Below are positions 604 through 2,982 of a stretch of DNA of 64,000 bases, in pieces; position 1 is the first letter of the stretch, and every line of letters begins with the position of its first letter. The notes beneath the pieces were generated by a model, which saw only the letters and a program-made list of their open reading frames with translations, did not search any database and was not told where the DNA came from. The position numbers were made by a program, and so were the translations under genes. This stretch comes from Rickettsiales bacterium (GTDB taxonomy: Bacteria > Pseudomonadota > Alphaproteobacteria > Rickettsiales > UBA1997), in the NCBI GenBank assembly GCA_038123275.1, contig JAYORG010000001.1, forward strand, positions 66,710 to 130,709, given 5' to 3'.

Positions 604-2982
604 ATGGCAGGTTTTATATCTAAAATAAAGAAGACAATATTACTTTTCTTAGCAATCTTCCTATTATCAGTTTTTGATAGTAGTGATGCTTTTGCTAAAA
701 TATGCGATGGTGGTGTTAATTGCACAGGCAAAACCCAAACCCTTTGTGAAGAAGTTGCAGGATGTACATGGGTAGTTAATCCAGATTTAACCGATGAATC
801 ATCTCTTACTATTGCAATGTGTAATGTAGTTACCATGGCAACAGGTACAGGTGCTAAGGTTTTTGCTTCTCTAGTTATTATATCTCTTGGAATTGGTTTT
901 TTTACAGGTAAAATATCTTGGGGCTTAATATTGGGAGTGGGAGGCGGTATCGCTTCTATTTTTGGTTCTGTTACAATCGTAGCAGTAATATCAGGTAGTG
1001 ATGTTCTTAATTGTGTTGTTGGTGTTAAAGCAGATTGCACTTCAACTTCTGAAGGTTATGATTTACCAGAGAACTCATCTCCAAAATCAAGTACATCAGC
1101 TAATAATAATTCTTCAATAAAAATATTATGTAATTCAGGGTTTTTTGGTCATATTAATGATTTAGTATGTTTTGATGGAATATGGTACGGCGCATCAGGG
1201 TTTTGCGAACAAACAGATTGTGGAGATCCAAATGTATCAGATCCTTTGGATAATGGTACTTGGGATGTAAATCAGGCTAATGATGGTGAAACTATTACTG
1301 GTACATGTGACAATGGTTTTAGAGGTCCTGTTACAATTCAGTGTAGTGAAAATAACTTTATAAATATGCAAGGAGCATGTGATCCATTGCCAGTTTGTGA
1401 TTCTACTACTCAAGGTTATCAAGATATTAGTGAGTGGGGTGAATGGTCTGCTGATTCAGCTTATATTGGACAATCAGTATCGGCATCTTGCTATGATTCT
1501 GATTTAGGTGTTGCTCCATCAGATATGGAGTGTGTTTACACCGAAGATGAAACAGCAGGAATATGGCAAGGTGGAGATAATGAAAATTGCAAAGTATTCC
1601 AACCATGTAATGATGCTAGTACTTTTATGGATTTATCCCCAAATGGTTCATGGCTATCTGAATCGGTTAATCATGGTGATAGTATTGATGGTAATTGTTC
1701 TTATGGTAATTATGATTTACCTCCAGAGTTAGTATGTAATGATGGTAGTTGGGAATCAATAGGTGGAGATGCTTGTCCATCTCAATGCATTGATGCAGAT
1801 GTTAATTTTGACATAAGTCTTAATGGCGGTACTTGGCCATCGCAAACAGTAAATTATGAAAGCACTATAACTGCAAATTGTCCACAACAAAGATCAACCT
1901 ATGATGATAAACCAGAGTTAACTTGCGGTGATGAAGGAATATTTACTTTTAATAATATTTATTGCCATGAAGGTTGTGATACAGAGTCAGATGGTTTTAT
2001 TGCAATTGATCCTGCAGATGGTTCATGGTCTAATAGTGGCGCTGCTAATAGTGGTGACGAAGTTACAGCTACTTGTACTTCTAGCTCTGCAGATTTACCA
2101 GTTTTAACTTGTCACGATGGAACTTGGACAGATAATGGGTTTGAATGTTATGCTGGATGTACGGATGCAGATGGATTTTTAGCATTAGATCATGGTAGTT
2201 GGCAAAGTCAAACGACTAATCATGGTACTACTGTTAAGGGTACTTGTCCAAATAGTTCTGATGTGCCAACGTTAAAATGTAATGATGGGCAGTGGGAAGA
2301 TATAGCCGGATCAGTTTGTCATCCTGGATGCACCAATGGTAGTGCTCAAGCATTATCATCAAACGGCTCTTGGCCAAGTAATGATTCTGCTGATCATGGT
2401 GGTTATATTGAGGCAACTTGTCCTTATGGATATACTAATAATACAAAACCTAGATTAACATGTGGTACCAACACAGATGGACAATGGGACTATAATGATG
2501 TTGATTGTTTCCCTCCATGTGATACAAATTCTGCTGGATATGTAAATGTAGATGGTGGTACTTGGTCAAATAATGGTGTTGCTAATAATGGTTCTTCAAT
2601 TACATTTACTTGCAATCAATATTATACTCCAAGTGGTTCTGTTGGTCCTCTTACTTGTACTAATGGTGTATATACGGGAAGTACTTCTGGTAGTTGTATC
2701 CCAATTACTTGTCCTGCTCATACATTAACGATAAAAGGTTATAATATTAGTATGGGTGAAAAAGTTGTTAGTAGCACATGCCATAAATATAGTGGTAATG
2801 TTGATGGTGATCCAAGATATAATCGTTGCTGTCCAGATGGAAGATGGGCAGGAAACCAGGATTATAATTCAATTACGCCATCATCAGGTATAGGTTTTGC
2901 TTCTAGTTACCATTATGATAGTACTAGCAGTGGTAGGAGTAGTGATTGTACAAAATGGGGAGCTAGTGATTGTGGGCTTTAA
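604..2982 (+). CDS. VirB2/TrbC-like T4SS pilin domain fused to about 9 tandem four-cysteine CCP(sushi)-like modules
   Basis: Single 792-aa ORF with a hydrophobic signal-like N-terminus. Residues 66-131 (nt 799-996), SLTIAMCNVVTMATGTGAKVFASLVIISLGIGFFTGKISWGLILGVGGGIASIFGSV, align by eye with the A. tumefaciens VirB2 core ICTFILGPFGQSLAVLGIVAIGISWMFGRASLGLVAGVVGGIVIMFGAS. From Cys145 onward there are ~60-aa repeats such as CGDPNVSDPLDNGTW..GETITGTCDNGFRGPVTIQCSENNFINMQGAC. Confidence 0.8.
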   Translation: MAGFISKIKKTILLFLAIFLLSVFDSSDAFAKICDGGVNCTGKTQTLCEEVAGCTWVVNPDLTDESSLTIAMCNVVTMATGTGAKVFASLVIISLGIGFFTGKISWGLILGVGGGIASIFGSVTIVAVISGSDVLNCVVGVKADCTSTSEGYDLPENSSPKSSTSANNNSSIKILCNSGFFGHINDLVCFDGIWYGASGFCEQTDCGDPNVSDPLDNGTWDVNQANDGETITGTCDNGFRGPVTIQCSENNFINMQGACDPLPVCDSTTQGYQDISEWGEWSADSAYIGQSVSASCYDSDLGVAPSDMECVYTEDETAGIWQGGDNENCKVFQPCNDASTFMDLSPNGSWLSESVNHGDSIDGNCSYGNYDLPPELVCNDGSWESIGGDACPSQCIDADVNFDISLNGGTWPSQTVNYESTITANCPQQRSTYDDKPELTCGDEGIFTFNNIYCHEGCDTESDGFIAIDPADGSWSNSGAANSGDEVTATCTSSSADLPVLTCHDGTWTDNGFECYAGCTDADGFLALDHGSWQSQTTNHGTTVKGTCPNSSDVPTLKCNDGQWEDIAGSVCHPGCTNGSAQALSSNGSWPSNDSADHGGYIEATCPYGYTNNTKPRLTCGTNTDGQWDYNDVDCFPPCDTNSAGYVNVDGGTWSNNGVANNGSSITFTCNQYYTPSGSVGPLTCTNGVYTGSTSGSCIPITCPAHTLTIKGYNISMGEKVVSSTCHKYSGNVDGDPRYNRCCPDGRWAGNQDYNSITPSSGIGFASSYHYDSTSSGRSSDCTKWGASDCGL
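1036..2979 (+). repeat. Coding tandem repeat: about 9 divergent ~60-aa four-Cys modules plus a distinct C-terminal Cys-rich module
   Basis: Recurrent pattern C..(D/N)....(N/D)G.W........G..(I/V)...C.......P.L.C.DG.W......C (for example LVCNDGSWESIGGDAC, LTCHDGTWTDNGFEC, LKCNDGQWEDIAGSVC). Confidence 0.75.

Follow-up and report, generated by a model that had tools for sequence, protein, structure and literature searches.

We analysed a 64,000-nucleotide (nt) stretch of the genome of an uncultured, environmental Rickettsiales bacterium (contig JAYORG010000001.1, positions 66,710 to 130,709 of the forward strand; hereafter the window) and found that its gene at 604-2982(+) encodes a VirB2-family pilin domain followed by a long array of complement control protein (CCP, or sushi) modules. 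The open reading frame (ORF) is intact, begins with ATG and runs for 792 amino acids (aa) without interruption, as the original prediction had read it. The fusion is real and not an assembly artefact, it recurs in other genomes, and the window protein is one member of a sizeable pilin-plus-extension class in environmental Rickettsiales. From sequence and predicted structure, we propose with a probability of about one half that it is a modular VirB2-family pilin of an rvh-type type IV secretion system (T4SS), a minor subunit whose CCP stalk and variable head would serve as an adhesin. In the usual view, a VirB2 pilin is a small building block, uniform in kind, and it is VirB5 or a separate adhesin that recognises the target.

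Pilin core and CCP array of the window protein

The VirB2-like core, which had been placed at about aa 66-131, was recovered by profile and sequence searches alike. PF04956 (TrbC/VirB2) matches aa 66-128 (E 7.7e-6; 26.5 bits, slightly under the 27.9-bit cutoff), the NCBIfam model 'pilin major subunit VirB2' matches aa 72-130, and the sole matches of a PDB sequence search are to A. tumefaciens VirB2 (8exh, 8cue), aligned to aa 72-131. The pilin cores of homologous fusions score 30-59 bits on PF04956, comfortably above the cutoff. With aa 1-148 as query, phmmer found 393 matches among 1.84 billion representatives; the short ones (100-220 aa) show 45-59% identity and E values of 1e-18 to 1e-20, far lower than chance would give. 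Members of this pilin family carry PF04956 in profile searches, and some are named 'type IV secretory pathway VirB2 component (pilin)' or 'TrbC/VirB2 family protein' in JGI and NCBI records; the family profile (A1) matches VirB2 of A. tumefaciens alone in the PDB (E 2.9e-6). In addition, every residue invariant in the family (T80, G81, G96-I-G-F99, G102, G115, F120, G121 and G131) is kept in the window protein. The N-terminal domain is thus supported as a true TrbC/VirB2-family pilin. With 792 aa, about 650 of them past the core, the fusion departs from the family's size criterion, a mature pilin having ~70-120 aa; because the size and maturation expected of the family do not apply to it, we call it a modular variant and not a typical TrbC/VirB2 member.

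In the AlphaFold2 model, the pilin hairpin consists of helix 1 (aa 67-101), the loop TGKIS and helix 2 (aa 106-129), and hydropathy peaks lie at aa 2-31, 75-110 and 107-143. Hydropathy, the positive-inside rule and the distribution of Cys predict a hairpin with both ends in the periplasm, which is consistent with the position of Lys103, the sole charged residue of the inter-helix loop, and with the positions of the 48 Cys, none of which falls in the predicted cytoplasmic loop or the membrane cores. The predicted Sec signal peptide has a Lys-rich n-region, a hydrophobic stretch at aa 11-24 and an A-F-A/K cleavage motif, and is probably cleaved after A31. It is followed by a four-Cys knot, modelled by AlphaFold2 as a small beta/alpha unit with a predicted local distance difference test score (pLDDT) of 73-85. 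The knot is common to the homologous fusions P0006, P0008 and P0013 described below and occurs in one or two copies in the short pilins P0009, P0011 and P0012. Many short pilins of the clade carry one or two such Cys-rich knots ahead of the pilin core, and therefore both pilin termini seem open to decoration. Two Cys bracket the hairpin: in the Rickettsiales VirB2 subfamily, short pilins included, Cys73 is invariant and Cys137 occurs in at least 90% of the members (alignments A1 and A2). A disulfide between them may staple the periplasmic ends of the hairpin and might stand in for the head-to-tail cyclisation that VirB2 and TrbC are known to undergo.

From Cys145 onward, where about nine CCP modules had been suggested, the Cys spacing defines nine: C1-(29-33)-C2-(11-15)-C3-(12-19)-C4, with the following C1 4-6 positions past C4. 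Between C3 and C4, six of the nine modules have Trp as the aromatic residue, and three have Phe or Tyr. PF00084 (Sushi) scores 30.9 bits against a cutoff of 20.7 bits. When 33 distinct modules from the window protein and its three closest homologs were aligned, the four Cys were invariant, and the consensus xC...L..(N)GxW...a..G.tIt.tC..Gy....P.L.C.(N/D)GxW.....C is the textbook CCP pattern. In the PDB, the module profile matches CR2 (1.5e-27), factor H (3.9e-27) and FXIII-B (4.6e-22), and further CR1, beta2-GPI, DAF, C4BP and the vaccinia and variola complement-control proteins; among the matches listed, only CCP/sushi-containing chains appear. A word-indexed search with the module profile (A3) gave no match, its index being too coarse for diverged modules of 60 aa.

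Structure prediction agrees with the profile searches. Modelling of a single module, a check proposed by the original prediction, gave a CCP-like structure that is beta-rich besides one short helical turn (mean pLDDT 92); the best six Foldseek matches of this 61-aa module are CCP proteins, at E values of 0.4-1.7, which are not significant, as is to be expected for so small a domain. In the full-length model, pLDDT is 70-91 over most modules, and all 43 PDB matches found by Foldseek at E <=1e-3 contain CCP modules, with CR2 the best (1.2e-14). The junction stretch, aa 121-153, is the lowest-confidence and apparently flexible part of the model. By sequence profile and predicted fold, the repeats are true CCP/sushi modules. 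The protein ends, as had been noted, in a distinct module with six Cys (aa 699-792), for which a Pfam search gave no match and no fold was predicted (pLDDT <40). Its sole likeness to the C-termini of P0006 and of the upstream paralog P0001 is an (R)CCxDGRW-like motif in a weak alignment.

The fusion in other genomes and a wider class of modular pilins

The translation of window positions 3-473 is identical to the C-terminus of P0001 (861 aa), which lies on the same 239,053-bp NCBI contig; two such genes thus stand in tandem at this locus. Over aa 1-~455 their products are almost the same, with substitutions at aa 17, 435 and 451-452; past this point the distal modules and heads diverge, and P0001 has one extra module. 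The genome therefore holds the 5' 1.3 kb of the gene twice, and assemblies from short reads end where this repeat does. Three Logan contigs from independent assemblies, L082-L084 (SRR26337542, SRR26337543, SRR26337545), match the window with 100% identity from nt 1924 and all end there. This position lies 30 nt before the differences at aa 451-452, as k=31 predicts where the copies are identical over more than 31 nt. These breaks are what could suggest that the pilin-CCP junction was produced by mis-assembly of a repeated region, or that the gene is decaying. We consider either very improbable, since the junction (nt ~1000-1040) lies well within the duplicated segment, away from its edge, and both paralogs are intact ORFs. 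In addition, the same junction and architecture are found in P0006 (946 aa, 11 modules; ENA contig L085), P0008 (759 aa) and P0013 (974 aa, 12 modules), which come from two other metagenomes and unrelated assemblies. The latter two are paralogs 1.7 kb apart on the 101-kb ENA contig L086, next to an ankyrin-repeat gene. Cys137 and the first CCP module are conserved at the junction in all four homologs. The survey of paralogs proposed in the original prediction has yielded a tandem copy and three further proteins of shared architecture, and the fusion is confirmed. A whole-protein word-indexed search found the tandem paralog only.

Collapse of the intragenic repeats was also considered and rejected: the modules are just 65-80% identical at the DNA level, over short stretches only, and are too diverged for collapse. 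The GC content at third codon positions (GC3) of the fusion gene is 0.146, compared with 0.155-0.199 for housekeeping genes, and its overall GC content is 37% vs 30%. Because GC3 matches the housekeeping genes, the higher overall GC content reflects amino-acid composition and not recent import. Recent horizontal acquisition from a host was rejected on the same native GC3; an ancient acquisition could have taken place. The array had been called host-like, but nothing ties it to a host or to recent transfer, GC3 being that of the genome in which the gene resides.

In P0008 (L086 6056-8335), the C-terminal ~230 aa are a Cys-free region with no Pfam match instead of CCP modules; this region appears to be another kind of distal head, borne by a stalk of the same design.

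The fusion is not unique, and in this respect the original prediction needs amending. Among the retrieved proteins that we surveyed, mostly from the best 150 of the 393 phmmer representatives, 27 combine one N-terminal pilin domain with at least 200 further, mostly Cys-rich residues, 25 of them besides the window pair. CCP arrays are the extension in the window pair, P0006, P0008 and P0013. In P0054, P0085 and P0097, laminin-type EGF repeats are followed by a Gly_rich_2 domain, which other fusions carry with no detected EGF match; P0109 has a SUEL galactose/rhamnose-binding lectin at the tip, and P0110, P0146, P0149 and P0154 have a low-Cys extension. By eye, loci L038, L061, L069 and L076 of Rickettsiales metagenome-assembled genomes (MAGs) resemble the EGF/glycine-rich type, and L074 the lectin type. 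In its general design, such a protein is therefore a pilin that carries a stalk built of small disulfide-rich modules, with a head at the distal end that in one case is a recognised lectin. Since about 25 of the nearest 150 pilin clusters, or one sixth, are modular and the lectin and EGF versions recur, this looks like a general, overlooked design of T4SSs.

Another 27 of the surveyed proteins have tandem pilin domains, two to nine per protein; P0007 (794 aa, 9 domains), P0010, P0014, P0047, P0043 and about 20 more are of this kind. They look like pilin polyproteins, whereas Patescibacteria have arrays of separate pilin genes (PMC12102498).

Proposed function and alternative explanations

As a minor pilin, the protein would be inserted by the Sec pathway and lose its signal peptide, and its two-helix hairpin would sit in the inner membrane with both termini in the periplasm. 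There the N-terminal Cys knot, the Cys73-Cys137 staple and the C-terminal extension of ~650 aa would be oxidised. The T4SS would treat the pilin module as an ordinary VirB2, so that the protein could enter the pilus or stalk in low copy alongside short canonical VirB2, most plausibly as the first-assembled distal layer. The nine CCP modules would form a semi-rigid stalk of ~30 nm (our estimate, at ~3.5 nm per module), which would keep the variable distal modules and the C-terminal head at a distance from the bacterium, where they could bind a ligand carried by a eukaryotic host or prey cell. An adhesin grafted straight onto a pilin paralog would then fill the target-recognition role of VirB5, which is absent from rvh. 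Two observations fit such adhesin logic: sister architectures end in binding or head domains, namely the SUEL lectin of P0109 and Gly_rich_2 after laminin-EGF repeats in P0054, P0085 and P0097, and tandem paralogs differ in their distal modules and head, a second genome also having two paralogs. Pili of the conjugative type are extended at their base, and their tip is the layer assembled first. Elsewhere this place belongs to a VirB5 pentamer (PMC12857230); a low-copy VirB2 paralog with an adhesive array would therefore be a natural substitute for VirB5. The argument that a C-terminal extension of a pilin would be exported fits the predicted topology, with all Cys outside the cytoplasm; incorporation into the T4SS structure, surface display and adhesion, be it by every subunit or by one at the tip, are inferred.

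Several points weigh against this proposal. The direct PF04956 score of the fusion is slightly below the curated cutoff, as given above, and the confidence of the hairpin model is moderate (pLDDT 48-69). The fusion gene lies among housekeeping genes, away from T4SS genes, and the only T4SS genes seen for this genome are VirB10 and VirB2. Pili are seldom observed in Rickettsiales (PMC2653234). The main weakness is that the T4SS would have to pull a VirB2 with a folded, disulfide-bonded extension of 650 aa out of the membrane, build it into a polymer and take it across the outer-membrane core complex. As to gene linkage, the rvh T4SS has scattered genes, virB2 included, and lacks VirB5 (PMC2653234), and it is almost universal in Rickettsiales (PMC10847448). 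Because rvh genes are normally scattered, a lack of neighbouring T4SS genes is expected and is not evidence against a T4SS role.

The pilin and the array might also part company after export. If periplasmic proteolysis cut the chain near Cys137-Cys145, a normal-sized pilin and a free CCP protein would result, the latter staying in the periplasm or leaving as a soluble or T4SS-delivered factor. In TrbC of RP4, C-terminal trimming precedes maturation. Species-specific N- and C-terminal processing of TrbC/VirB2 is known (PMC2653234), the pertussis Ptl system, a T4SS without VirB5, pushes out periplasmic disulfide-bonded cargo (PMC12857230), and the apparently flexible junction offers a place for a cut. 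However, as the genome already has a short conventional VirB2, a second route to a plain pilin seems redundant; Cys137 and the first CCP module, conserved in four homologs, suggest a structured link and not a disposable one, and no protease site is identifiable at the junction. We regard such a pro-protein as unlikely. It seems a little less likely again that the VirB2-like hairpin is only an inner-membrane anchor, with the CCP array working in the periplasm or envelope independently of the T4SS; such an array might be a spacer, help to organise the envelope or offer a scaffold for binding. The absence of linkage to T4SS genes would suit such a protein, nine CCP modules would by our estimate roughly span a periplasm, and the pilin cores of CCP-type fusions are the most diverged in the family, with 56-60% identity to short pilins. 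Nevertheless, the window protein retains every family-invariant pilin residue, which is beyond the needs of a generic anchor, and the scattered layout of rvh genes means that missing linkage says little (PMC2653234). The lectin and EGF modules of sister fusions are typical of extracellular recognition, and the distal divergence of the paralogs points to an exposed, ligand-facing tip.

If, on the other hand, the protein entered the pilus as its major subunit, one of the options in the original prediction, each subunit of a homopolymer would bear an array, and the result would be a 'bottle-brush' pilus or a sheath of CCP stalks. The N-terminal Cys-rich decorations on many short pilins show that pilin termini tolerate additions. 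Still, the coexisting conserved short VirB2 is the obvious major subunit, and a filament with a folded array on every subunit would be hard to fit through the outer-membrane channel, so we hold this arrangement to be improbable. A low-copy modular pilin thus remains our preferred explanation. We extend it to the class only tentatively, as a possible but doubtful generalisation: the grafted CCP, laminin-EGF, SUEL and glycine-rich modules of environmental Rickettsiales may form the tip or first layer of rvh and replace VirB5, and rapid variation in their distal modules between tandem paralogs may set the range of hosts or prey.

Genomic setting, known systems and implications

The features of the fusion gene and related elements are collected in Table 1. 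The promoter candidate sits in the 130-bp AT-rich spacer between the tandem paralogs; the count of sigma-70-like sites in the region shows no excess over the shuffled expectation.

Table 1. Coordinates of the fusion gene, its domains and related features in the window
Feature	Position (nt)	Strand	Position (aa)	Basis
3' end of upstream paralog P0001 (861 aa): last CCP and C-terminal Cys-rich module	1..473	+		Translation identity
Sigma-70-like promoter candidate, TTGATT-17-TATAAT, extended TG	546..574	+		30 nt 5' of ATG; consensus match
Complete ORF, proposed modular VirB2 pilin with CCP stalk	604..2982	+	1-792	ORF call, Pfam, NCBIfam, hydropathy/Cys map
Predicted Sec signal peptide	604..696	+	1-31	Hydropathy; model helix 2-24; A31 nearly invariant in family
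N-terminal 4-Cys knot (C34, C40, C48, C54)	697..783	+	32-60	Motif CDGGxxCxGxxxxxCxxxxGCxW; homolog alignment
TrbC/VirB2 pilin core	784..1014	+	61-137	Pfam, NCBIfam and PDB matches; family invariants; model helices
Cys73 and Cys137, bracketing the hairpin	820-822, 1012-1014	+	73, 137	Family alignment
Nine tandem CCP/sushi modules	1036..2697	+	C145-C698	Cys spacing, alignment, Pfam, PDB profile, AlphaFold2, Foldseek
CCP module 1	1036-1206	+	145-201	C1 to C4
CCP module 2	1219-1380	+	206-259	C1 to C4
CCP module 3	1396-1590	+	265-329	C1 to C4
CCP module 4	1606-1776	+	335-391	C1 to C4
CCP module 5	1786-1965	+	395-454	C1 to C4
CCP module 6	1975-2148	+	458-515	C1 to C4
CCP module 7	2158-2319	+	519-572	C1 to C4
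CCP module 8	2329-2508	+	576-635	C1 to C4
CCP module 9	2518-2697	+	639-698	C1 to C4
Boundary between near-identical and diverged parts of the paralogs	1924..1969	+		Pairwise alignment; Logan contig ends
C-terminal Cys-rich module, 6 Cys, distal protein end	2698..2979	+	699-792	Cys map; pLDDT <40; weak alignment
Stand-alone VirB10/TrbI homolog, 495 aa	47727..49214	+		PF03743, 156.9 bits

The window has 30% GC and contains housekeeping genes throughout. According to a contig scan with the pilin alignment (79 loci), the pilin subfamily is almost exclusive to MAGs labelled Rickettsiales, Rickettsiaceae or Alphaproteobacteria; many are aquatic, going by their isolate names, and some records have evidently automatic species labels. 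The window shares aspS (72-76% identity), an aminotransferase gene and coaX with loci L001, L002 and L033, and uvrC also with L001. The genes on either side of the VirB10/TrbI gene encode an acyltransferase/hydrolase fusion and a PpsR-type kinase and are not T4SS genes. Such an isolated VirB10 shows that P-type T4SS components are encoded at scattered sites of this genome and fits the 'islet' layout of rvh. Records also place a short VirB2 with a consensus-like sequence, P0226 (125 aa), on a contig of 239,053 bp, the length of the window's NCBI contig; P0226 lies outside the window, adjoins waaA and rpmB in Logan contigs and is 55% identical to the core of the fusion.

Some further observations concern the organism and the neighbouring genes. 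A gene for an NtrC-type sigma-54-dependent response regulator is present at 50467-51942(+). Because such regulators are lost in classical intracellular lineages, its presence hints that the lineage has undergone less reduction and may be a basal or aquatic one. Ankyrin-repeat proteins, which fit a host-associated lifestyle, are encoded in both genomes with CCP-pilins, in L086 (region 4454-6022 and 6056-12925), where one such gene lies directly upstream of that for P0008, and, with a weaker match, at 60302-61183(-) of the window. An ORF of 826 aa at 3042-5522(-) is convergent with the fusion gene; it has no family match besides a weak one to DUF5770 (E 0.15), forms a singleton cluster at 90% identity, and is an orphan, possibly an effector. 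Meanwhile, alaS appears to be divided between two ORFs, both intact and both on the minus strand, at 53757-54566(-) and 42984-44960(-), with 8.8 kb separating them. The piece of 269 aa corresponds to class II AlaRS core profile positions 1-259, and that of 658 aa runs from profile position 265 through the SAD and DHHA1 domains; seven plus-strand genes, the stand-alone VirB10 among them, lie in between. The arrangement may reflect a split synthetase that is functional, or else a rearrangement.

Compared with known systems, the window protein shares with TrbC/VirB2 pilins (A. tumefaciens VirB2, RvhB2, PF04956) the signal peptide, the glycine-rich two-helix hairpin, the short basic loop and the core residues. 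It differs from these proteins of ~100-200 aa in its length, its C-terminal Cys-rich extension and its N-terminal knot, and it occurs beside a normal short VirB2. The role proposed for it, low-copy distal target recognition, is that of the minor tip subunits VirB5, TraC and CagL, but this is a functional analogy only: no Pfam, NCBIfam or PDB match to the VirB5/TraC helical-bundle domain was found in the window protein, and there is no kinship in sequence or fold. In the modular type IV pilins PilB and PilC of Streptococcus sanguinis, an adhesive or lectin part is likewise grafted onto the C-terminus of a minor pilin (PMC8179133, PMC9934059). However, type 4 pilins belong to an unrelated filament superfamily with a class III signal peptide and a prepilin peptidase, whereas the window protein has a Sec-type AxA signal and a VirB2 hairpin. 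The Trw system of Bartonella has tandem variable copies of TrwL (VirB2) and TrwJ (VirB5) that are thought to diversify host-cell binding (PMC12857230); those are ordinary small pilins varying in the pilin itself, while the window paralogs vary in the distal appended part. With CR1, CR2, factor H, DAF, CD46 and vaccinia VCP, the array shares ~60-aa four-Cys beta-sandwich beads, short linkers and the aromatic residue between C3 and C4. It is, in contrast, bacterial and pilin-fused, has 13-24% identity to the PDB CCP chains aligned by Foldseek, and shows a subfamily signature of an early NGxW and a late (N/D)GxW. The extended VirB6 of Anaplasmataceae and Rickettsia is also a Rickettsiales T4SS structural subunit with a very large hydrophilic extension (PMC7648143, PMC12857230); VirB6 is, however, another component of the system, and what extends it is no array of CCP, EGF or lectin modules.

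In the literature covered, including MAG studies of Rickettsiales (PMC9352585, PMC10847448), papers on rvh, a 2025 T4SS review (PMC12857230) and a study of Patescibacteria T4SSs (PMC12102498), we found no account of VirB2 fused to CCP, EGF or lectin modules. Extended VirB6 and arrays of separate VirB2 genes are treated there, but extended VirB2 is not (PMC9352585, PMC10847448, PMC12857230, PMC12102498). The class of modular VirB2 pilins is thus apparently undescribed.

The array is among the clearest bacterial cases of a long canonical sushi array, and it bears on how adhesion modules of eukaryotic type spread and are reused. The modular VirB2 design parallels that of the modular pilins of type 4 pili. 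The rvh system is without VirB5, and the manner in which it engages host cells, if it does, matters most for the newly found lineages that are aquatic and may be extracellular. For the absent function of VirB5, a concrete and testable candidate is a VirB2 paralog that brings its own CCP stalk and variable head. If this proves true, modular VirB2 pilins would be an adhesion device that lets VirB5-less T4SSs find eukaryotic cells.

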